A stretch of DNA of 64,000 nt, from contig CAZZCF010000001.1 in the NCBI GenBank assembly GCA_964652955.1, forward strand, positions 12,555 through 76,554. Direction: 5' to 3'. The stretch is from an uncultured Leptospirales bacterium. GTDB lineage: Bacteria; Spirochaetota; UBA4802; JAKQUI01. How positions within the stretch are numbered: position 1 is the first letter of the stretch; each line of letters opens with the position of its first letter. This document shows positions 4,244 to 62,906 of this stretch, piece by piece. The position numbers were made by a program, and so were the translations under genes. A model generated the notes under the pieces. That model had not been told where the DNA came from. It worked only from the letters and a program-made list of their open reading frames with translations, and did no database searches.

Positions 4244-5316
4244 AGGTTGCCCTGATGACAGGTGATTATCCGGGGATTATCTCGGGTATCAGCGATTACA
4301 GCTTCCGCCTGAAGGAACAGCTCGAAAAGCTGGGGGATGAAGTGTTTGTGATAACATCGCTTGATGAGCGGGTGACAGATGAAGGAGTTGCATTGAGGAT
4401 TGCGTGGAATTTGAGGGGCTTTCGGGAGATCGGGAGATTTCTCAATGAGAATGGAATACGGGTGCTGAACATTCAGTATCCCTGTTCGCTGTACGGGAAA
4501 TATAATCTCTTTCCCCATCTCTACGCCGTGCTGCTGCGCCTCTCCGGCATGAAGATTGTCACCACGCTTCACGAGTTTTCGAACATCAACCTTCTCAGGC
4601 GTCTCTCGGAATATCTCTTCGTTATCTTTTCACAGCGTATTATCGTGACGAATGATCGTGATCGGGAAGCGATACTGAGGCGGATTCCCTTCAGCGGCGG
4701 GAAGATGTCGATTGTTCCCATCGGCTCGAACATCGGGGGCGTAAACGAGGGCCCTCGCTTCGATTCACGGTATATTACCTCTTTCGGCATCTTCTATCCC
4801 CGCAAGGGGGCGGAGCGGGTCATCGACATAATGGAGGCGCTTGACAGGAGCTTCGAAAATAAATATATTTTCAAGTTCATCGGGGGAACACATCCCTACT
4901 ATCCCGACTATCTCGGGAGGTTCAGGAGGCTTGCCGAATCGAGGCTCAGCAGGACCGAGTGGCATCTCGATCTCCCGTTGAATGGGATAGGACCGCTCCT
5001 CGCCGACTCCTTTCTCAGTGTTATGTGTTTCAGAGATGGGGCCTCATTGCGGCGGGGGAGCCTCCTCGCGGCGATTGCCAATGGCATTCCGGTGATAAGC
5101 AATCGGGGCGCGGGGACCGATCTCCGTGAAATCGAGGAGAAGGGTTTGTTCTATGCGGATGCTGATCTGAGCAATTGCGCTGAAATAGTGCAAAAGCTTC
5201 AGCGCGAGGATTTTTATCATTCTGCTTTTAATTCGCTCATCAATTTCGCAAAGAGATTTGACTTTCGTGCAATAGCGCGGGAGTATCAGAAGAATTTCAG
5301 TTTGTTTGATGAGTAG
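4240..5316 (+). CDS. Family 4 (GT-B) glycosyltransferase
   Basis: 358 aa with a GTG start; C-terminal 'RRGSLLAAIANGIPVISNRGAGTDLRE' resembles the GT4 sugar-donor binding region. Confidence 0.7.
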   Translation: MKVALMTGDYPGIISGISDYSFRLKEQLEKLGDEVFVITSLDERVTDEGVALRIAWNLRGFREIGRFLNENGIRVLNIQYPCSLYGKYNLFPHLYAVLLRLSGMKIVTTLHEFSNINLLRRLSEYLFVIFSQRIIVTNDRDREAILRRIPFSGGKMSIVPIGSNIGGVNEGPRFDSRYITSFGIFYPRKGAERVIDIMEALDRSFENKYIFKFIGGTHPYYPDYLGRFRRLAESRLSRTEWHLDLPLNGIGPLLADSFLSVMCFRDGASLRRGSLLAAIANGIPVISNRGAGTDLREIEEKGLFYADADLSNCAEIVQKLQREDFYHSAFNSLINFAKRFDFRAIAREYQKNFSLFDE

Positions 5317-8486: not shown

Positions 8487-9796
8487 ATACGACCGGTCAT
8501 TCATGGGCGTACCGGTGGTCCTTTTACTCACTCTGCCTCTTTCTCCTCTTCTCCGGGATATCAATATCGGTTTCGCAGGGCGCCCTGATCCTTGCAATAC
8601 TCCTGTGGCTGCTGGGAAGGGTTTTGAAATATGATGATACTGTCTATTATCGGAGCGGCCTGGAACGCTATGTTCTCCCCTTCTATGTTATCTCCTTTCT
8701 GCTCGCCTTCATATCTTCACCCGCAATTAAGGGGAATCTGCTCTATTTGAAGGATACTGGGCTTGCAGTTCTCTGCTTTCTGGTTCCTTCGATGCTGCGG
8801 CGGAGAGAGGAGATGTCGAGAATAGTAAAGATTATTATCTTCATCGCTCTCTTCAATTCGGTTGTCGGCATCGCGCAGTATCTTACCGATATCGACTTCA
8901 TGAATGCATTCAGATACGGACTTTCCGACAAGAGAGCTTACCTGAGCTACGGGAATCGCCATGTCGTCGGTTTCCTCGGACATCATCTGACCTATGGCGG
9001 TTATATGATGATGATAGCAATACCCTTCATCTATCTGAGCTTTGTGAAGGAGGGTGAGAAGAAGGAACGGCTTTTCATAAAGGTTTCGGCCCTCCTCTCA
9101 GCCCTGTCAGTTATTCTCAGCTGGGCGCGCTCGGTTATTGTCTCCCTTCCCTTTGGAATTCTCCCGCTTCTGTTCAGAAAGAAGAAGGTTTTTTTCGCGC
9201 TCTTTTTCTCTCTGATATTGGTTGTCATCACCATCTTCACGCATTTCGGCCCCGAGGAGGGAATTGTAAAGAATTTTCAGGATCACAGCACACAACTTCG
9301 TGTTGTCATGTGGGAAGCTGCTTTCAGGACCTGGCTGAAGCATCCCTTCTTCGGCACCGGCGGAGGGAACTATCTTGAGAAGTTCAGAAAAGAGGTGGGG
9401 CCCATTTCGAGCAGGCCCGAGCAGCGAAAGCTGATGATAAAATCGAAACATTACAAGTGGGGGCTTCGAATGCTGGTGAGAAAGGGTTCGCATCCCCACA
9501 ACGACTATCTCAATCAGCTGGCGCGGAAGGGTATTATCGGATTTCTCGCGTACCTCTATATGCTCTTCGGAATCTTCAGGTATATGAGTGCAGGCGTGAA
9601 GGATATTGAGGACAGATTCTACCGGCATCTCGCCATGGGGCTCTTCGGCGCCTACTGCACATTTCTCGCCGCGTCGATGTTCCAGTGCTACTTCACCGAT
9701 GAGGAGAACCTCGCCATGTTCTGGTTCACCGTCGGGCTTTTCGCTGCCGTCGTCAGGGTGGTGAATGCGGAGAAGGTTAAGCAGAATTCTGATTGA
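8483..9796 (+). CDS. O-antigen ligase (Wzy_C) domain membrane protein
   Basis: Polytopic protein containing 'SHPHNDYLNQLARKGIIG', the conserved H-N-x-Y-L motif loop of the WaaL/O-antigen-ligase family. TTG start overlaps the upstream stop as TTGA. Confidence 0.75.
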   Translation: MNTTGHSWAYRWSFYSLCLFLLFSGISISVSQGALILAILLWLLGRVLKYDDTVYYRSGLERYVLPFYVISFLLAFISSPAIKGNLLYLKDTGLAVLCFLVPSMLRRREEMSRIVKIIIFIALFNSVVGIAQYLTDIDFMNAFRYGLSDKRAYLSYGNRHVVGFLGHHLTYGGYMMMIAIPFIYLSFVKEGEKKERLFIKVSALLSALSVILSWARSVIVSLPFGILPLLFRKKKVFFALFFSLILVVITIFTHFGPEEGIVKNFQDHSTQLRVVMWEAAFRTWLKHPFFGTGGGNYLEKFRKEVGPISSRPEQRKLMIKSKHYKWGLRMLVRKGSHPHNDYLNQLARKGIIGFLAYLYMLFGIFRYMSAGVKDIEDRFYRHLAMGLFGAYCTFLAASMFQCYFTDEENLAMFWFTVGLFAAVVRVVNAEKVKQNSD

Positions 9797-26880: not shown

Positions 26881-27235
26881 CCATACACCTCGCTTTCACT
26901 GCAAAGTTCGCTGCTGATTACGTGTTGAGTCAGGAGACGATGAGCACCCGCGTTCATTATAGAACGAGATTACGATAGGGGCGAAAATTGTAAAGAAAGT
27001 TTTGCAACAATGCGTCAATCCGGGCGATGAGTTTTCTGCCATCTCCGTTTCATCATGGTGCGGGTAATAGGGTATGGCCCCTCCGGGGGTGATAATGATC
27101 ATTTGTATTGTGCTTGACCTCCTAGTATTTTCCATTATCGATAGTATCGTCTGCCATATAGTGCGGGATAGCTGACAGGAGGAGGTTGACGTGATCGTGC
27201 AGAACAGGCCACAGAAATAACGCAGGGAGGATGAC

Positions 27236-27691
27236 ATGGAATTTATACCGGTTGAAAAGCTCAAAGAGATGATTGGCCAGGAGATGGGAGTGAGCGACTG
27301 GGTTCAGATTGATCAGGGGAAAATAAATCAGTTCGCCGAATGTACCGGTGATCATCAGTGGATACACGTTGATGTCGAGAAGGCAAAGCAGGGCCCCTTT
27401 GGCGGACCCATTGCACACGGTTTTCTCACCCTCTCACTGATACCGGTTTTGAGCGGCTCGAGCAAATACATGCCGGAGGGAATCAAGATGGCCATTAACT
27501 ACGGGCTCAATAAGGTCAGGTTCATCAACCCCGTACCGGCCGGCTCGCGGGTTCGGAGCAGAATGGTCCTGGCGGATATTGAAGAACGCTCCGGCGGAAG
27601 AATAATGATGACCACCACTCATAATATCGAGATTGAGGGGCAGGATAAACCGGCATGTATTGCTGAATCGCTGGCGCTCTTCTATGTGTAG
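27236..27691 (+). CDS. MaoC-like (R)-specific enoyl-CoA hydratase / hot-dog dehydratase
   Basis: 'NQFAECTGDHQWIHVDVEKAKQGPFGGPIAHGF' is the MaoC dehydratase signature. Confidence 0.85.
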   Translation: MEFIPVEKLKEMIGQEMGVSDWVQIDQGKINQFAECTGDHQWIHVDVEKAKQGPFGGPIAHGFLTLSLIPVLSGSSKYMPEGIKMAINYGLNKVRFINPVPAGSRVRSRMVLADIEERSGGRIMMTTTHNIEIEGQDKPACIAESLALFYV

Positions 27692-33017: not shown

Positions 33018-33760
33018 ATACGGATACCTCTCAATTTGCCGAAGTTCTCGAAAGGTACGGTTTTGCCGAACCGATCCCGCCTGAAGTGCAAAAGCATATC
33101 CGAAACATCAAGAGCGAGCAGTTTATACGGACCCTGAGGAAAGCCGGTAAATACAGTTTTATCTTCGGAATTGTTACTTCTGTTTTCTTTGCCATAAAGA
33201 AAATGGGCGTGGGCACAACTATTGTGAAGAGTGCTCTTCTGGTCTTCGCGTCGGCTGTCATATCTCTTACGATACTATCATCAGGCATTTACCTCTCCTT
33301 CAAATTTATTACAGCTCCCGAGGAAAGGATTGAGGAAAAAAGAGAAGATGTGGTGCAATCGGGTGACGGTGGGATCGATAAACGGATAATCCATGAGAAA
33401 AAGGCACGGAGAGAGATTCCGGAGGGAGTGATGCAGTTGGGCGTGCAACCCTTTGTTGCTGTTAATGTGAAGGGGAGGATTGCGCTCCTGGCTGCCGATA
33501 CCATCGCGAAGAAGCTTGTCGAGCTGAGCGGGAGCTCCCGGGTGATAAATATGAGGAGGGGGAGAGAGGGGGGAAGGATAGGTCTTATGCTTTTGGGATC
33601 GGTTGAGGATTTGGAGGGAACCTATACCATCACTGCAAAAGTAGTCGGTGTCAGAGATTCGAAGATCGTATTCTATACGTCGGAGACCGTTCGTTCGATT
33701 GATGAGATTCCCGCAGCCTGCACGAGGATTGCAGAGCGGATTTCGAAAATCATCAGATAG
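33014..33760 (+). CDS. Putative membrane-anchored anti-sigma factor / regulator
   Basis: Its start overlaps the sigma gene stop by 4 nt; a short cytoplasmic N-terminus is followed by two TM helices and a periplasmic domain. Assignment is by position. Confidence 0.45.
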   Translation: MNTDTSQFAEVLERYGFAEPIPPEVQKHIRNIKSEQFIRTLRKAGKYSFIFGIVTSVFFAIKKMGVGTTIVKSALLVFASAVISLTILSSGIYLSFKFITAPEERIEEKREDVVQSGDGGIDKRIIHEKKARREIPEGVMQLGVQPFVAVNVKGRIALLAADTIAKKLVELSGSSRVINMRRGREGGRIGLMLLGSVEDLEGTYTITAKVVGVRDSKIVFYTSETVRSIDEIPAACTRIAERISKIIR

Positions 33761-33782
33761 AAAAAGCACAACAGGGGTTCTT

Positions 33783-34790
33783 GTGAAGACAGCACACGGG
33801 AGGTTGCTCTGGCGCAGCGCGGTGCTCCTCTTTTCCATATTGCTAAGCACCTCTGCCCGGTCCGATACCGGATCGGTTGCGAAGAGAGTTGCCGTGCTCA
33901 ATTTTACGGCCAACAACACGTCTGAAGGAATTTCCCGTATTGTCCGCAATCAGGTTGAGATTAATCTGTTCAAGACGCAGTATTTTGATATTCTCGAGAG
34001 AAATCAGATAGATCTCCTCCTGAAGGAGCGGGAAAAGCAGGCTGCCGAGTGTAATGATGAGAATTGCGCCGTTAAGATAGGGAAGATTCTCTCCGCTCAT
34101 TTTGTCATCATCGGGAGCGTGGATAAGCTCGAAAGTTTCGTTATTACCATCAAGGTGGTAAGCGTAAAGGAGCGATCGGTGATACTGGTCGACTCTCAGG
34201 AGGTTGATTCACTCGGAAATATCAGAGGTACGACAACGGTCATTACCAGACGGGTTGCGGACAAGCTGCGGGTAAATATGAGCGGTGAGAAGAAGAGCTT
34301 TTTCCCTCCGCTTGCCTTTTCGCTTCGCCTGAGTTATCTGTGGCCCACGGGCTATCTTAAGGATCTCGCTTATCCGGGGTACGGCGTTTCGATGCGGGGA
34401 GGCTTTGAAGATATTTTCCTGAAGGATGTACAGATCGGGATTGATCTCGGCTATTTCAGTTTCCGGGGAAGAGATGCAGTGGATCGAGCGACGATGATAC
34501 CGGTTGTGCTCATTGTCGGGTATCGTTTTGCCGCAGGGAGGTTTTTTGCGATTCCGGAGTTTTCGTCGGGGGTCAGTTATAACACCATCAGTTACGATGC
34601 CGGGAACCGAAAATCCGGTGAGCGGAAGGAGAGCAGAATGCAGCCGCTCGTCAGGGGAGGCCTTGTGCTGGGGGGCTTTCTGGGAGGCTCGCTCAGCGGC
34701 GTTATCGGCGCTGAATACGGAAGCATCTTCGAAAGAGAGGGGAGGATATCCTTTGTTTCCATCATCACCGGCGTTTCGGCGTCATTTTGA
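33783..34790 (+). CDS. Outer-membrane lipoprotein with CsgG/LpoB-like N-domain and C-terminal beta-barrel-like region
   Basis: 'VAVLNFTANNTSEGISRIVRNQVEINLFKTQYFDILERNQID...AVKIGKILSAHFVIIGSVDKL' fits the CsgG-family fold pattern. The C-terminus has alternating aromatic/Gly strands. GTG 33783 follows an ACAGGGG RBS after the upstream stop. Confidence 0.5.
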   Translation: MKTAHGRLLWRSAVLLFSILLSTSARSDTGSVAKRVAVLNFTANNTSEGISRIVRNQVEINLFKTQYFDILERNQIDLLLKEREKQAAECNDENCAVKIGKILSAHFVIIGSVDKLESFVITIKVVSVKERSVILVDSQEVDSLGNIRGTTTVITRRVADKLRVNMSGEKKSFFPPLAFSLRLSYLWPTGYLKDLAYPGYGVSMRGGFEDIFLKDVQIGIDLGYFSFRGRDAVDRATMIPVVLIVGYRFAAGRFFAIPEFSSGVSYNTISYDAGNRKSGERKESRMQPLVRGGLVLGGFLGGSLSGVIGAEYGSIFEREGRISFVSIITGVSASF

Positions 34791-35022
34791 GACCTCTGTC
34801 ATCATCAACCTTCGGGAATAAGCTCTCCCCGCGGGCACAGGGTCAGGTCATGGGTTCGATCACCGAAGATGAGCTCAACGAGCGATTGTCAGTTCTCTGA
34901 TTCTTTTGTTAAGGATCGGGGCGCAGTGGCGGATGACGAACAACGATAACGCTCTGTTTGTATGCAATTCGCCGGCCGGGCGCGCTACAGAAAGAAAAAG
35001 TCGTTTATGACAGGAGGTGCAC

Positions 35023-36843
35023 ATGAAAGGGATGTTTCAGTTTTCCATCGTTGCCGTATCACTCTCTCTCATATCCTGTAATAGCCTCTTTTATGATATT
35101 TCTTCACCCTCCAGCGAATATATAAAGCCGGAAGTGGCGTATGTGTATCCCGAGCCGGGTTTAGTTGATGTGCCGACAAACACATCGATACTCGTATCCT
35201 TCAACAAGGAGATTGATATCGCGTCAATCGATAGCGAGGCCTTGCATGTTGTCGATGAGTTTGGCAATGTATTGCGGGGGGAGATTGCCTTTCACGAGAA
35301 CAGCATCGCCATATTCGAGCCCGAAGAGCCGATGATTCCGCATACGGCATACACGGCAATGCTGAAAAAAGATGTCCGGGATATGGAGGGGGGAGCGCTT
35401 GACGCTGATTATTCATGGAGCTTTATAACCGGCTCGGAGGAGGACATGGCTTCACCGGAGATTGTTTCGACCCTCCCGGAGCATAATGCGGCATGCCCCA
35501 CCGAGAGCGTCTCGATAGTGGCCACTTTCAACGAGGACATCAATCCTCTGTCGATAACGCCGGAAACCTTTCGTGTTGAGGACGGAGAGGATATCGTCGC
35601 GGGAGCGATAAGCTATGATGCCGGCAGGAGATCGATCATATTCGTCCCCTACGGGCGGTTGAATGACAATTCCCGTTACCGGGTTGCCGTTATGAACATA
35701 AGGGATCTCGCGAAAAATCCCCTGAGCGCGGAATTCGTCTGGAATTTCAGAACCGGCGCGATTCGAATAGAGCTCGAGGATGCCAGGAACTGCGAGAACG
35801 GCTTCGCCACCTTCGGGCATCCGCCGCGAAGGCTGTTCAAGGATGATGGATTCCCGCTCTCGGAGGGGACCGATTTTACCTACGATTTGTCAATCGCCTC
35901 TCTCTTCGACCGAGGGATAAATGGAGCCTTCGAGCCCGGAAAATACTTCCGGATTGTCGAGAACGGGAAAAATATTGTGGATAGTAACGGCCTTGCGCTG
36001 GTTCCGGTGGCCAGGATGATCCTCTTCAGCGATATTAATCGGATTGCTCCGAAGCCGTATCAGTGCTATATCGATCCGATGAGCGGATATTTTATACTGC
36101 CTCGTCCCGATTACTGGAGCAGGCTGGAGAGCCTGGATGATATTGTCGAGGCGGAAATTTATGACACCGTGCCGAGTTACAGCGGGAATCAGTTGTCCTG
36201 TACGACCGGCAAGTTCGGAAAGTGTATTTATCAGTATGAAACCTCACCAGAGCATATCGATACTAATATTTTCTACATGTACCCTTTCGGTGATGCTGAA
36301 AAAACTTCATCTCGGGGAACGGCATCTTTCTGGTTGCGTTGTAATCCTCCTTCGGGGAAATATTACATATACAGCCATTTTGTTTTCGGGAATAACAATG
36401 TACACTTTACCTGTGATTACTGGGGCCAGAAAATTATTAAAATAAATGTTAACGGAGTTGTAGTTGCGAGTAAAAATTTAAATTGGACGGGATGGACACA
36501 TGTTTATGTCGTATGGGCGGAGGATCGAAGCCTCTCGGATAACAAGACTGTACGGGTATTTATCAACGGTCAGGAATATGTTTCAACAACCGCGATAATA
36601 GATACGGAGGGTGCTACATATTATAAAGGATTAATGACCTTTGTCCTTAATGAACAATACGGATACAATTACTGGGACAACATCAAAATCTGGAAGCACG
36701 TCGTCTCCGAGGATCCCTCCTGGGAGTACAACAGCGGCGCCGGAAGGGAGGATGCCCTTCACGAAATGTACGGTCCCGACAACGGCTACAGGCCCCTCCT
36801 CACCGGTCCCGGAAACGGGGTGGGGTACTACTACGTGCCGTGA
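35023..36843 (+). CDS. Large surface lipoprotein with two SbsA/Big-like Ig domains and a C-terminal LamG/ConA-like domain
   Basis: Lipobox 'LISCNS'; two repeats of 'Y(V/I)xP..G..DVPTNTSI.V.F...I' type; the C-terminal part is beta-rich and resembles the lectin/LamG fold. ATG 35023 follows AGGAGG. Confidence 0.6.
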   Translation: MKGMFQFSIVAVSLSLISCNSLFYDISSPSSEYIKPEVAYVYPEPGLVDVPTNTSILVSFNKEIDIASIDSEALHVVDEFGNVLRGEIAFHENSIAIFEPEEPMIPHTAYTAMLKKDVRDMEGGALDADYSWSFITGSEEDMASPEIVSTLPEHNAACPTESVSIVATFNEDINPLSITPETFRVEDGEDIVAGAISYDAGRRSIIFVPYGRLNDNSRYRVAVMNIRDLAKNPLSAEFVWNFRTGAIRIELEDARNCENGFATFGHPPRRLFKDDGFPLSEGTDFTYDLSIASLFDRGINGAFEPGKYFRIVENGKNIVDSNGLALVPVARMILFSDINRIAPKPYQCYIDPMSGYFILPRPDYWSRLESLDDIVEAEIYDTVPSYSGNQLSCTTGKFGKCIYQYETSPEHIDTNIFYMYPFGDAEKTSSRGTASFWLRCNPPSGKYYIYSHFVFGNNNVHFTCDYWGQKIIKINVNGVVVASKNLNWTGWTHVYVVWAEDRSLSDNKTVRVFINGQEYVSTTAIIDTEGATYYKGLMTFVLNEQYGYNYWDNIKIWKHVVSEDPSWEYNSGAGREDALHEMYGPDNGYRPLLTGPGNGVGYYYVP

Positions 36844-36994
36844 GGATGTAGCTAGTTGTTAATTGACCGATTGCCAATATTTTAGAAAAGACCATAGCAT
36901 TTCAATAAATATTGTTAGTGTAATTTCAAATCGAATCGAAGTGATGTAATTAATTTATTTTGCATAGGAATTCAATAAAGCAGAAGAGGGTGGA

Positions 36995-37759
36995 ATGAGA
37001 AGATTTTATATTATACTTATACCCATACTGTTGTTTATGGTTAGTAATTTGTTAATAGTTATTCCTGATAATTGCAGGACCCTTGATGATTTGATCAGTC
37101 AATTGAATTTTTTCAGTTATGTATTAAAGATATTGTTTGTTTTGTTAGCAATTGCTATTTTTCTAATATACAATTTAACAGCTGTAATGGGAACTTTGAA
37201 TAAATTTATTCAATTTGATACGATTAGACCGGATATAATTGGCAAGTTGGTTGAAGAATCTTTAAACATTTTTAAGGAATTGGGTATTGAATTTAGAGTT
37301 AATGTAATGCTGGTTAAATTTAAAATCATTGTATGGAAACGATTTATAAAATTTCTTCGGCCATTTATTTTTCAAAAACAATTCAAAACCGTTTATCATT
37401 ACAATATGGAGCATGATCGAGATAAGGATTTAGGGCTTATAACAAAGCAGGGTGTTGCAGGTTTGGCTTATAATGATCCCGAGGGGAAACATAGAATCGT
37501 TGATTTTATGAATGTTGATAGGAAATTTTTTAAATTAGATAAAGATCAACTTGATAGAACAAAGAGTATTAAATTTGTAATTAGCACTCCAATTCTTAAA
37601 TGGAATCATGAAACTGGTAAATTAACTGATAAGGTTATCGGAGTGGTCAACATTGATAGTAGAAATAATTCATTTAAGATTATACAGGAAAAAGTTGTAA
37701 TTGAGGATTTAGTTCAGTACAGTTACAATATAGCTGATTATGTCGCAAAGTTATATTAA
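36995..37759 (+). CDS. AT-rich islet gene: N-terminal 2-TM segment plus GAF-like domain protein
   Basis: Local GC is roughly 30% against about 57% for its neighbours. Two TM helices are followed by 'GLITKQGVAGLAYNDPEGKHRIVDF...SIKFVISTPIL...KVIGVVNIDS', which matches the GAF ligand-binding core pattern. Confidence 0.5.
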   Translation: MRRFYIILIPILLFMVSNLLIVIPDNCRTLDDLISQLNFFSYVLKILFVLLAIAIFLIYNLTAVMGTLNKFIQFDTIRPDIIGKLVEESLNIFKELGIEFRVNVMLVKFKIIVWKRFIKFLRPFIFQKQFKTVYHYNMEHDRDKDLGLITKQGVAGLAYNDPEGKHRIVDFMNVDRKFFKLDKDQLDRTKSIKFVISTPILKWNHETGKLTDKVIGVVNIDSRNNSFKIIQEKVVIEDLVQYSYNIADYVAKLY

Positions 37760-37804
37760 TTTGATTTCTTTTATGAGAATTGTATATTCAATACAGAGGC
37801 TAAA

Positions 37805-38011
37805 ATGAATAGCAAAAAGAAAAAAGACGACAATAAAACAATGCTTGTAGAAATAGAAGGTATGCCTGGAGTGTATACCTCAACTGGCAGTTGTCATTCA
37901 ACCGATATTGATTATTCTACATTGGTAGATAGAATATTAAAGCCGTTAGAAAAAACAAGAAAAATAAAAGGTCCAATTCCCAAATGGCCTATAAAAGGTG
38001 TGGAAGAATGA
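37805..38011 (+). CDS. Small hypothetical protein (68 aa) in the AT-rich islet
   Basis: Open frame with Lys-rich N-terminus; no recognisable motif. Coding status uncertain. Confidence 0.3.
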   Translation: MNSKKKKDDNKTMLVEIEGMPGVYTSTGSCHSTDIDYSTLVDRILKPLEKTRKIKGPIPKWPIKGVEE

Positions 38012-38028
38012 TCCTGACCGATCCCGGC

Positions 38029-38301
38029 CTAATCCCTGAAGTTGTAGTGCTTCCTCACCGGCTCCTTGACGTTCCACGTGCAGGAGAGCCCCCGTGGGAA
38101 GGTGACGAAATCGCCCTTTGAGAATTCCACCTTTTTGCCGTCGGGCATCTCCACCTCGACTTTTCCCTCCAGGAGGAGGCACTCCTCGGTGCTGTCGTAG
38201 GACCAGTCGAACCGGGATACTTCCTTCTCCCATACCGGCCAGCTGTAAACGCCCCGCTTCTTGAGCTCGCCCTCTTCTATTTTTTCGATTGTAATTTCCA
38301 T
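38029..38301 (-). CDS. Small cupin-fold protein
   Basis: 90 aa with 'LLLEGKVEVEMPDGKKVEFSKGDFVTFPRGLSCTW', typical of single-domain cupins. Confidence 0.7.
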   Translation of the reverse strand: MEITIEKIEEGELKKRGVYSWPVWEKEVSRFDWSYDSTEECLLLEGKVEVEMPDGKKVEFSKGDFVTFPRGLSCTWNVKEPVRKHYNFRD

Positions 38302-61517: not shown

Positions 61518-62585
61518 TCAGAGCCGCTCCTGTATGTACTTGGTGAGTATGTTTCGGGCGGGATCTGACATCTCCAGGAGGCGGAAGGTGTAGTACGAAA
61601 CGCTCTCCTCGGTGATGGTCCTGTCGGAGATGACCTTTGAGGTAATGTTTATCTTGAACTCCGAGAGCTCGAATTGCAGCGAGTAGCTCTTCTCGTAATC
61701 CAGCTTCTCTGCGACGCGCACTATCGCCTCGAACTCGTTCATCTTGTAAATAGTGCCGTTTATTTGTACAGCTTCACCGAGCCCGGCTTCCTCCTCCGCT
61801 TTGAGTTCGGTTATGATACATGAGATGATCGTATCGATGTAGGGATGGCGCTCCTCTTCACCACGGGTGAAGACATCGGGGAGGGGAATGCCTATCAATT
61901 TATTTTCAACAGTGGCAATGGCAGTATCAAAGGTATATTCGGCATCTCCCTTTCTCCAGAGATATACCCTGATCGGCTTACCGGCGAAGTCCCTATATTC
62001 GCCGGGATTGCGAAACAGCTTAACGGAGAGCATCTTGTCCTTATTCCCGATGACGCGGCCGATAAAGACATCATTCTCTTCGGTGAAGAAACAGAGGAGG
62101 ATGTCGGTCTCGAGATCGGTTAGGCGATCCAGCGTTTTTTTAACGCTCTTTCGGTGATAGAGCTTTTCATAGGTTTTAATGATGTCGATGCTTATCTGAT
62201 GGAGTGATTCCTGCAGCTCTTCCTGCTCACGCAGAAACGGTAAAAAGCTTCCCAGGGATAATTCAAAGAGATCCGGATTCTGCAGGATATTAATGGAATC
62301 CTTGAGTTTCAGCATATTTGCCAATCCGTTCAGAATCTTGATCTGGTAATTGGAGAGCCCGAGCTGCTTCGTCTTGAAGAGGAAGAGCTGTTCTGCATGC
62401 ATCTTCTTCTTTTGCAGGTAGTGATTGTACCTGAACAGTATGAGAAAGGCGAGCACAAGGAGTACTACCAGGATGATGAGCACCATTTCGATTGCAGAGG
62501 GAACAGGCCATTTCACACCCCATACCGTTTCTATCATGATGAGGCACTCCTGCTTTTTTTTACGCCCGCAGGTGCCGTGTAGCAA
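61518..62585 (-). CDS. Membrane-anchored protein with YcgR/PilZ-like C-terminal region (weak)
   Basis: One TM helix ('MVLIILVVLLVLAFLILF'), then a beta-rich region loosely resembling YcgR-N plus PilZ; the RxxxR / DxSxxG motifs are not canonical. Start is uncertain. Confidence 0.35.
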   Translation of the reverse strand: MLHGTCGRKKKQECLIMIETVWGVKWPVPSAIEMVLIILVVLLVLAFLILFRYNHYLQKKKMHAEQLFLFKTKQLGLSNYQIKILNGLANMLKLKDSINILQNPDLFELSLGSFLPFLREQEELQESLHQISIDIIKTYEKLYHRKSVKKTLDRLTDLETDILLCFFTEENDVFIGRVIGNKDKMLSVKLFRNPGEYRDFAGKPIRVYLWRKGDAEYTFDTAIATVENKLIGIPLPDVFTRGEEERHPYIDTIISCIITELKAEEEAGLGEAVQINGTIYKMNEFEAIVRVAEKLDYEKSYSLQFELSEFKINITSKVISDRTITEESVSYYTFRLLEMSDPARNILTKYIQERL

Positions 62586-62906
62586 TCGATTTATTGAACC
62601 TGTCGACGCAGGTGGGTACCTTCATGATAAGCTTCAACCTTCTTCTGCCGAGGAAGCTTGATCTCCACTTTCAGATTCAGGTTCCCTTCATTTTTGCTGT
62701 TGGCTCAAAAATGCAAAATACTATCACGTGCACTGCAGGCTGTTTGATAAGATAACAAAACAGGGTGAATAAAAGCAATTAAAAAATAAATTTTATCGAT
62801 GGAATCACGATTGAGGAGGGCTAAAAAAAGGTGGACAGACGCCGTTGCGCACTGTAGGGTACCTTGCCGCGGATATATACGGATATATTTGTACGGGAGT
62901 ATTTAG

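Follow-up and report, generated by a model that had tools for sequence, protein, structure and literature searches.

What does a short run of strongly AT-rich DNA encode in the genome of an uncultured Leptospirales bacterium, and does it belong there? The window analysed here is the whole stretch of 64,000 nucleotides (nt) taken from contig CAZZCF010000001.1 (GenBank assembly GCA_964652955.1, positions 12,555 to 76,554), and the AT-rich islet in question, at positions 36844-38028 of the window, holds two open reading frames (ORFs), ORF-A of 254 amino acids (aa) and ORF-B of 68 aa. Our analysis favours, with moderate confidence, the reading that the islet is a horizontally acquired toxin–antitoxin module of the SpoIIS type, belonging to an unannotated family. 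ORF-A is the putative toxin, a membrane-anchored protein with a GAF domain, and ORF-B a putative small basic antitoxin or partner.

The islet takes up the whole space between the stop codon of a lipoprotein gene (36841-36843) and the stop codon of a convergent cupin gene on the minus strand (38029-38031). In windows of 200 nt, the content of guanine plus cytosine (GC) falls from 0.56 at 36700-36899 to 0.255-0.33 throughout 36900-37999 and is back at 0.575 at 38000-38199. The 1-kb bin at 37001-38000 has a GC of 0.289, against 0.433-0.619 in the other 63 bins of the window, and the host genome has a GC of about 0.52. At third codon positions (GC3) the value is 0.25 in both islet ORFs versus 0.64±0.09 in the 39 window ORFs of at least 250 aa, the next lowest value being 0.52. 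This difference in GC3 indicates that the AT-richness reflects foreign codon usage and not amino acid content alone, and it rules out that the low GC is the mere product of a membrane protein rich in Ile, Lys and Asn. The composition of the islet is foreign, and the sharp drop between about 36850 and 38020 that had been reported in a preliminary description, made from the sequence alone, was borne out by the 200-nt windows, the 1-kb bins and the codon usage.

Both ORFs lie on the plus strand between the lipoprotein and cupin genes, as had been described, ORF-A at 36995-37759 and ORF-B at 37805-38011, with the start of ORF-B 45 nt past the stop of ORF-A. Each is preceded by a GAGG Shine-Dalgarno motif 5 nt upstream (36986-36989 and 37796-37799, respectively). 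That these ORFs are spurious is ruled out by the conservation of both families at the protein level over deep divergence. Hidden Markov models of the two families, run over all the DNA fetched in this study, found a single copy of the two-gene cassette in the window.

Pairing and distribution of ORF-A and ORF-B

An exhaustive HMMER search among 1.84 billion representatives recovered 92 clusters of ORF-A relatives, almost all of them 240-280 aa long, and a profile search with ORF-B recovered 12 clusters of 52-80 aa; the ORF-B proteins found in cassettes measure 52-82 aa. The genes of the nearest relatives of ORF-A are followed by a small ORF, which encodes 66 aa behind P0003 (49% identity to ORF-A), 78 aa behind P0002 (40%), 79 aa behind P0006 (37%) and 58 aa behind P0008 (36%), and loci recovered in the metagenome scan are organised likewise. 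These small proteins are homologues of each other. All ten distinct full-length cassettes that were recovered have the small ORF 10-58 nt downstream, and the ORF-B profile matches it in nine of the ten, with E values of 1e-19 to 1e-25 and of 1.5e-7 at locus L029, where P0066 (about 22% identity to ORF-A) is followed by an ORF of 56 aa. The distant homologue P0055 is followed by an ORF of 91 aa that has a weak GLY motif only. Conversely, for every ORF-B cluster that was looked up, the gene immediately upstream encodes an ORF-A homologue of 248-250 aa. Thus, ORF-B is the obligate, co-inherited partner of ORF-A, and the pairing is strict across deep divergence. Two genes stand apart: at L017 (7667-8390) the ORF-A gene is frameshifted, probably pseudogenised, and has no ORF-B homologue, and in a Myxococcota metagenome-assembled genome (L002/L018, 9797-10528) a soluble homologue consists of the GAF part without the transmembrane (TM) helices and is also without the small partner.

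The surroundings of the cassette differ from locus to locus. It lies between a LytTR regulator and an unknown gene at L003, after an ISAzo13-type DDE transposase (6-947) at L016, after a 94-aa HNH endonuclease (8587-8871) and among small unknown ORFs at L019, and after a serine recombinase (Resolvase plus Recombinase, 4441-5124) and near a DEAD-like helicase at L029. A 298-aa TIR_2 protein with a match to the PADLOC SpbK model at an E value of 3e-17 is encoded about 720 nt upstream of the cassette at L015 (374-1270) and L025 (295-1191), and at L023/L024 the cassette follows a PKD/LysM protein and has an 86-aa TIR fragment nearby; these TIR genes may indicate a defence-island context. In the window, the cassette itself lies between convergent genes of the housekeeping type, and its neighbours are ordinary envelope and metabolic genes. 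The cassette is mobile between unrelated loci and its distribution is sporadic, the relatives of ORF-A falling into 92 clusters and those of ORF-B into at least 12; such behaviour is usual for cargo of the toxin–antitoxin or defence kind.

The GC content of the cassette differs from that of its flanks in six contexts: 0.28 / 0.33 against 0.52 in the window, 0.23 / 0.31 against 0.52 at L003, 0.35 against 0.5-0.6 at L015, 0.31 against about 0.5 at L016, 0.34 against 0.51-0.64 at L023 and 0.34 against 0.54 at L026. In the low-GC contigs L004, L006, L019 and L029, the GC of the cassette equals that of its surroundings. Since the pair is AT-shifted in the GC-richer hosts and matches the low-GC contigs, these data suggest that the donors are low-GC organisms.

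Predicted structures and comparison with SpoIIS

ORF-A was modelled by AlphaFold2 with the family alignment, which gave a mean predicted local distance difference test (pLDDT) of 93.6 and a predicted template modelling score (pTM) of 0.86. The model shows helices at residues 3-22 and 30-37, a long helix at 40-94 and then an alpha/beta domain that closes with a helix at 236-253. The N-terminal part is predicted to form a membrane hairpin (37007-37180) made of TM1, at residues ~5-23 (37007-37063), and TM2, at residues ~40-62 (37112-37180), joined by a short periplasmic loop that contains the helix 30-37. Two hydropathy peaks, of 2.73 and 2.71, agree with the model in confirming the two N-terminal TM helices noted in the preliminary description, and in 63 of the 73 family members the number of hydrophobic segments is exactly two. 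The mean number of Lys plus Arg in the family is 2.0 at the N-terminus, 1.6 in the loop and 5.2 after TM2, and all 63 two-TM members are predicted to be N-in/C-in. This charge distribution places the GAF domain (37277-37756, residues ~95-254) in the cytoplasm, together with the extension of the TM2 helix that precedes it (37181-37276, residues ~63-94). By analogy with alpha1 and alpha5 of CSpoIISA (PMC3057836), the helix at ~63-94 and the C-terminal helix 236-253 would form a four-helix bundle for dimerisation.

In the predicted structure the C-terminal domain of ORF-A is a GAF fold, a three-layer alpha/beta/alpha arrangement around a central antiparallel sheet, and it can be superposed on GAF domains of known structure. 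The fold is confirmed by two methods, Foldseek among them, and agrees with what had been proposed from motifs such as KVIGVVNIDS, all of which are present. At the sequence level the signal is faint. No Pfam GAF model matched ORF-A of the window at E≤1, the models GAF_2 and GAF matched 10 and 6 of the 73 family members weakly (best E values of 6e-4 and 0.01), and the best match of the family profile in the PDB was the GAF domain of PDE5A, with an E value of 0.1. Since the Pfam GAF threshold is not reached, the membership of ORF-A in the GAF superfamily rests on the fold. The family alignment is conserved in the motifs LRxNxM, QGVxGxA, SxPI and IGVxNxDS, which in ORF-A correspond to R101-x-N103, Q152-G-V-x-G156-x-A, S197-x-P199 and G216-V-x-N-x-D-S222. 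No family in Pfam, NCBIfam, PADLOC or PHROGs matches ORF-A.

Proteins of the ORF-B family lack hydrophobic segments and carry net charges between +1 and +14, and ORF-B has a basic C-terminal stretch. AlphaFold2 modelled it with low confidence (pLDDT 62) as two beta strands (13-16 and 24-27), a helix (37-51) and disordered tails, so that ORF-B on its own is probably disordered. Conservation peaks in the turn between the strands (VPVEGKNGLY, with the core EGKNGLY) and in the helix (SISEISKIL-x-RPLP). Searches with ORF-B against Pfam, PHROGs and the PDB gave no match.

The known system that most of these features recall is SpoIIS, a type II toxin–antitoxin system of Bacillus. SpoIISA, of 248 aa, starts with three TM segments (residues 1-87), continues with a helix of seven turns and a GAF domain in the cytoplasm, and dimerises by a four-helix bundle of alpha1 and alpha5 (PMC3057836). 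Its antitoxin SpoIISB is basic, hydrophilic and natively disordered, has 56 aa, and when bound shows a coil, strands at 19-22 and 26-29 and a helix at 37-52, its most conserved parts being the segment between the strands and the C-terminal helix (PMC3057836); the basic C-terminus is essential (PMC4926146). The toxin gene precedes the antitoxin gene, and a duplicate antitoxin, SpoIISC, has 45 aa (PMC3057836, PMC4926146, PMC6562991). In its full-length form SpoIISA is lethal to B. subtilis and E. coli, whose envelope it damages, and it is regarded as holin-like (PMC3057836, PMC4926146, PMC6562991). True SpoIISA orthologues share only four invariant residues, and the copies outside Bacillus lie on accessory DNA (PMC4926146).

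ORF-A is close to SpoIISA in size (254 against 248 aa) and, as predicted, in the succession of N-terminal TM part, extended helix, cytoplasmic GAF domain and antiparallel C-terminal helix. The order of toxin then antitoxin in one operon is likewise common to the two systems. ORF-B (52-82 aa in the family, against 45-56 aa for SpoIISB and SpoIISC) is also basic and hydrophilic, its disorder being taken from the low-confidence model, and that same model places coil, two strands and helix at nearly the residue numbers of the bound SpoIISB structure. In both small proteins the conservation falls on the inter-strand turn and the C-terminal helix, and both end in a basic tail. At the family level the two systems share extreme sequence divergence, copies on accessory DNA and spread by horizontal gene transfer. 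They differ in the number of TM segments, three in SpoIISA with the N-terminus outside and two in ORF-A with the N-terminus inside (63 of 73 members). They also differ in that the invariant residues R38, Y42, D78 and D225 of SpoIISA cannot be mapped on ORF-A, whose GAF domain is more canonical, and in that SpoIIS has the duplicate SpoIISC whereas ORF-A goes with a single antitoxin gene. SpoIIS belongs to Bacilli, whereas the hosts of ORF-A/ORF-B are uncultured bacteria of varied GC with no link to sporulation. On this comparison, ORF-A/ORF-B reproduces each SpoIIS architectural feature considered, apart from the TM count.

Several results weigh against a SpoIIS-type reading. The SpoIIS sequences used for comparison were the deposited chains of 3O6Q from the PDB, and hhalign of the ORF-A family profile with 3O6Q_A, and of the ORF-B family profile with 3O6Q_B, gave a probability of 0.1% in each case. 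Profile searches of the PDB with the two families never retrieved 3O6Q at E≤10. The Pfam and NCBIfam libraries hold SpoIIS models, and searches of both with ORF-A and ORF-B gave no SpoIIS family. Neither hhalign nor the PDB profile searches thus detect homology to SpoIISA/SpoIISB, and ORF-A/ORF-B is an unannotated family whose sequences show no detectable likeness to SpoIIS; the homology test is nevertheless weak for distant members, because even true SpoIISA orthologues have so few invariant residues in common. PADLOC, in addition, matched none of the window proteins and gave stray, marginal matches to single members across the 73 ORF-A relatives. With no match in the window and no consistent signal over the family, a known defence system is rejected. 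The small basic partner could, finally, be a regulator or a substrate instead of an antitoxin.

If the module works as SpoIIS does, ORF-A would insert in the inner membrane as an N-in/C-in hairpin with its long helix and GAF domain facing the cytoplasm, and the helices at its two ends would probably mediate dimerisation. ORF-B would be transcribed together with ORF-A as one operon, bind the cytoplasmic GAF dimer and hold ORF-A inactive. Once ORF-B is lost, through proteolysis, a shut-off of host expression such as phage infection causes, or loss of the locus, ORF-A would oligomerise and damage the envelope, either by holin-like membrane lesions, as SpoIISA does, or by a block of cell division, as in the toxin toxFtsL(D9) discussed below. 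We infer the toxicity, the neutralisation by ORF-B, the binding mode and any role in phage defence. Phage exclusion or the stabilisation of mobile DNA is a plausible function, because SpbK-like, recombinase and transposase genes are found near the cassettes.

The preliminary description had likened the islet to abortive-infection effectors. On that reading the ligand of the GAF domain would be a cyclic nucleotide from a cyclase whose gene lies elsewhere, and upon its binding the TM helices would permeabilise the membrane, as in Pycsar PycTM or the CBASS 2TM proteins. PycTM, CBASS 2TM/Cap15 and the type III CRISPR protein Cam1 do resemble ORF-A in having an N-terminal TM part and a cytoplasmic domain of the ligand-binding type, and membrane disruption is their proposed mode of killing, as it is for ORF-A. 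However, these effectors always occur with a cyclase or a cGAS/DncV-like nucleotidyltransferase (CD-NTase) and use domains that bind cyclic nucleotide monophosphates (cNMPs), SAVED domains or CARF domains, whereas ORF-A has a GAF sensor, no cyclase and a small protein as its obligate partner. No cyclase or CD-NTase adjoins the cassette in the window or at about ten independent loci; the conserved partner has 52-91 aa and is not an enzyme; the window proteins are without a PADLOC match; and the conserved motifs are those of a generic GAF core, judging from the alignment with PDE5 GAF, with no recognisable cNMP signature. The remark that no cyclase or sensor partner is adjacent thus stands for the cyclase, but the 68-aa ORF that was treated there as a bystander is the obligate partner. 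Since the small ORF is obligate and no locus has a cyclase, a toxin–antitoxin pair fits better, and we consider the effector very improbable. Little more probable, and still quite unlikely, is a lysis-timing module of phage origin, a moron or prophage remnant in which ORF-A would be a relative of the class III (T4 T-like) holins and ORF-B a small antiholin of the cytoplasm comparable to T4 RIII. The T4 holin T, whose antiholins are RI and RIII (PDB 6PXE; PMC11413866), has one TM segment and a periplasmic domain and belongs to a lysis cassette with an endolysin, whereas ORF-A has two TM segments and a cytoplasmic GAF domain; the likeness of ORF-A to T and to the TM plus GAF proteins of phages in BFVD is one of fold, without sequence similarity. 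No holin family is among the Pfam matches of the ORF-A family, and no endolysin, spanin or other phage hallmark gene adjoins any locus examined. With tblastn, 50,697 phage records gave no match and 72,556 plasmids a single spurious one, and neither IMG/VR nor PHROGs held a relative; the tblastn and IMG/VR results reject a phage or plasmid origin.

The pair may also be harmless. A membrane-bound GAF protein could sense a ligand and reversibly sequester ORF-B, which would act elsewhere, for example on nucleic acid, in the manner of a partner-switch. GAF domains are typically sensors, the strong basicity of ORF-B proteins (a net charge of up to +14) is compatible with nucleic-acid binding, the toxicity of ORF-A comes from analogy, and its neighbours in the window are ordinary genes. 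On the other hand, the pair occurs in unrelated contexts, near mobile and defence genes and not with a conserved regulon, its composition is foreign and its distribution sporadic, the frameshifted copy at L017 is of a kind common for toxin genes, and the two membrane-anchored GAF proteins of such size that have been studied experimentally are both toxins; a sequestration pair is therefore doubtful in our view. One of these two toxins, toxFtsL(D9) of Gelidibacter mesophilus (WP_027127282.1), is a 281-aa protein with a TM segment, an FtsL-like helix and a GAF domain, found with NetFlax (PMC10440598). It causes filamentation and delocalisation of FtsZ without depolarisation, and it is neutralised by the co-encoded PanA (PMC10440598). 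ORF-A, compared with it by description only, has a similar size, membrane anchor, long helix and GAF domain and lies in a bicistronic module, and its long membrane-proximal helix could disturb the divisome without forming a pore, an alternative nested in the toxin–antitoxin reading that concerns its last step only. The validation of toxFtsL(D9) (PMC10440598) and the comparable layout speak for it. Yet the toxFtsL(D9) antitoxin is a Panacea (DUF4065) protein whereas ORF-B is a small basic protein of 52-82 aa, no PanA/DUF4065 gene adjoins the cassette in the loci examined, and no FtsL or DivIC Pfam signal is among the listed matches of the ORF-A family. For ORF-A we regard this last step as unlikely.

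Borders, control elements and history of the islet

An 8-mer at both borders had been proposed as a possible target-site duplication. The repeat TGACCGAT is present, 2-4 nt away from the positions first given for it (36868 and 38017), at 36864-36871 and at 38015-38022, both on the plus strand, the right copy lying in the 17-nt gap between the stop codons of ORF-B and the cupin gene. Strain contig L008 has a 1-nt deletion at 38023, directly after this right copy. An 8-mer is common to the two border windows in 7% of shuffles (P≈0.07), longer chance repeats also span the islet, such as the 10-mer TCCTCACCGG at 36797 and 38052, and no comparable flanking repeat was found at four other insertion sites (L003, L015, L016 and L017). 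The window holds eight copies of TGACCGAT, against 3.0 expected, and none of 100 shuffles reached eight; this mild over-representation is unrelated to the islet. A target-site duplication is therefore rejected, and we judge both copies to be chance matches. No convincing terminal inverted repeats of the islet were found, the islet has no mobility gene, and neither within nor beside it is there a tRNA, integrase or transposase gene. Integration at a tRNA or other RNA gene is ruled out, as ARAGORN detected no tRNA genes in the window, where a distant 6S/SsrS RNA gene (62560-62744, minus strand, RF00013, 94.8 bits) is the sole Rfam match.

Upstream of ORF-A, a tentative control region at 36871-36979 on the plus strand contains a promoter-like site (36871-36900) and a 17-nt direct repeat, CATAGCATTTCAATAAA at 36893-36909 and CATAGGAATTCAATAAA at 36963-36979. 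The copies are 70 nt apart within the 150-nt leader of ORF-A, and the repeat may serve the cassette as an operator or as a promoter element. Two more promoter-like sites precede ORF-B on the plus strand, at 37701-37729 inside the 3' end of ORF-A and at 37761-37788 in the intergenic gap, and may, tentatively, provide a separate promoter for the antitoxin. They parallel SpoIIS, where PB, the stronger promoter, is internal to spoIISA and drives spoIISB (PMC6562991). Because AT-rich DNA yields many chance matches, these candidates are weak; 15 promoter-like matches were found against 6.6 expected.

Three contigs of the same species from other samples (L008, L009 and L010) are 97.5-97.9% identical to the window at the nucleotide level over 11-14 kb, and in each of them the islet occupies the corresponding position. 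The islet of L008 departs from that of the window in a single substitution (37223, I77V), besides a change at 36844 and the 1-nt indel at 38023. The independent contigs L009 and L010 (ENA ERZ27256773, JGI 3300017991) both end at 37035-37036, 40 nt into ORF-A; this shared end is probably a break in the assembly graph, brought about either by strains present together or by the low coverage of AT-rich DNA. Since the islet is common to the sampled strains, its insertion predates their divergence. Of the earlier claim of a recent horizontal acquisition, the horizontal part is thus upheld by the foreign composition and the AT-shift in six contexts, but the word recent is not, as all sampled strains carry the islet. 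For the same reason the comparison with islet-free strains envisaged there yielded no boundary: homologues of the lipoprotein led to the three islet-bearing contigs and to the distant relative L011, where the downstream synteny is not conserved, and no empty site was found among them. L011 keeps the sigma factor/CsgG/Big_5 synteny, and downstream of it has neither cupin gene nor islet.

The lipoprotein gene to the left of the islet (35017-36843, plus strand) encodes a protein with Big_5 and LamG-like domains, and the convergent gene to the right (38029-38301, minus strand) a Cupin_3 protein. Of the 293 differences that separate L008 from the window, 170 lie within the 3' half of the lipoprotein gene, at 36000-36750, a divergence of about 23% compared with about 0.3% elsewhere. 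This strain divergence ceases at 36844, the edge of the islet. The two lipoproteins are 85% identical at the protein level, and the GC content dips to 0.38-0.40 at 36200-36600. This pattern resembles that of a recombined tract or of a surface protein undergoing diversification, which might be a phage receptor. A string of genes that abuts the islet (33648-36843) encodes an ECF-type sigma factor, a protein of about 248 aa, a CsgG-like lipoprotein and the Big_5 lipoprotein, and occurs also in L011 (3889-12019), a distant genome of 4.8 Mb whose Big_5 protein is 35% identical to that of the window; this conservation suggests an operon for a surface structure. Elsewhere in the window, 22 strain differences are clustered at 27000-27250, and the MaoC-dehydratase, one ORF of 151 aa in the window, is present in L008 (2216-2669) as ORFs of 86 and 67 aa, which suggests a frameshift or indel.

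Implications of the module

As the ORF-A and ORF-B families are absent from Pfam, NCBIfam, PADLOC and PHROGs, annotation and defence-finder pipelines miss them. The module is about 1.1 kb long and readily testable. Its mechanism would not be unprecedented; a SpoIIS-type module at this locus would extend a poorly understood toxin–antitoxin design well beyond the Bacilli.

A broader view is that killer proteins with a membrane-tethered GAF domain, each kept in check by a small disordered partner, form a widespread and so far unrecognised class, with SpoIISA–SpoIISB, toxFtsL(D9) and the T-type holins with their antiholins as branches and the GAF pocket as the trigger that responds to a ligand or to infection. 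We consider this possible but rather unlikely. If it were true, the cassette would be a minimal, self-contained abortive-infection switch without a cyclase, SpoIIS-type biology would be found far outside the Bacilli, and the control of holins by antiholins would be linked evolutionarily with toxin–antitoxin systems. The presence of a structurally equivalent module, unrelated in sequence, in uncultured bacteria of very different GC content suggests that a membrane-anchored GAF toxin with a small disordered antidote is a general mobile design and not a curiosity of sporulation.

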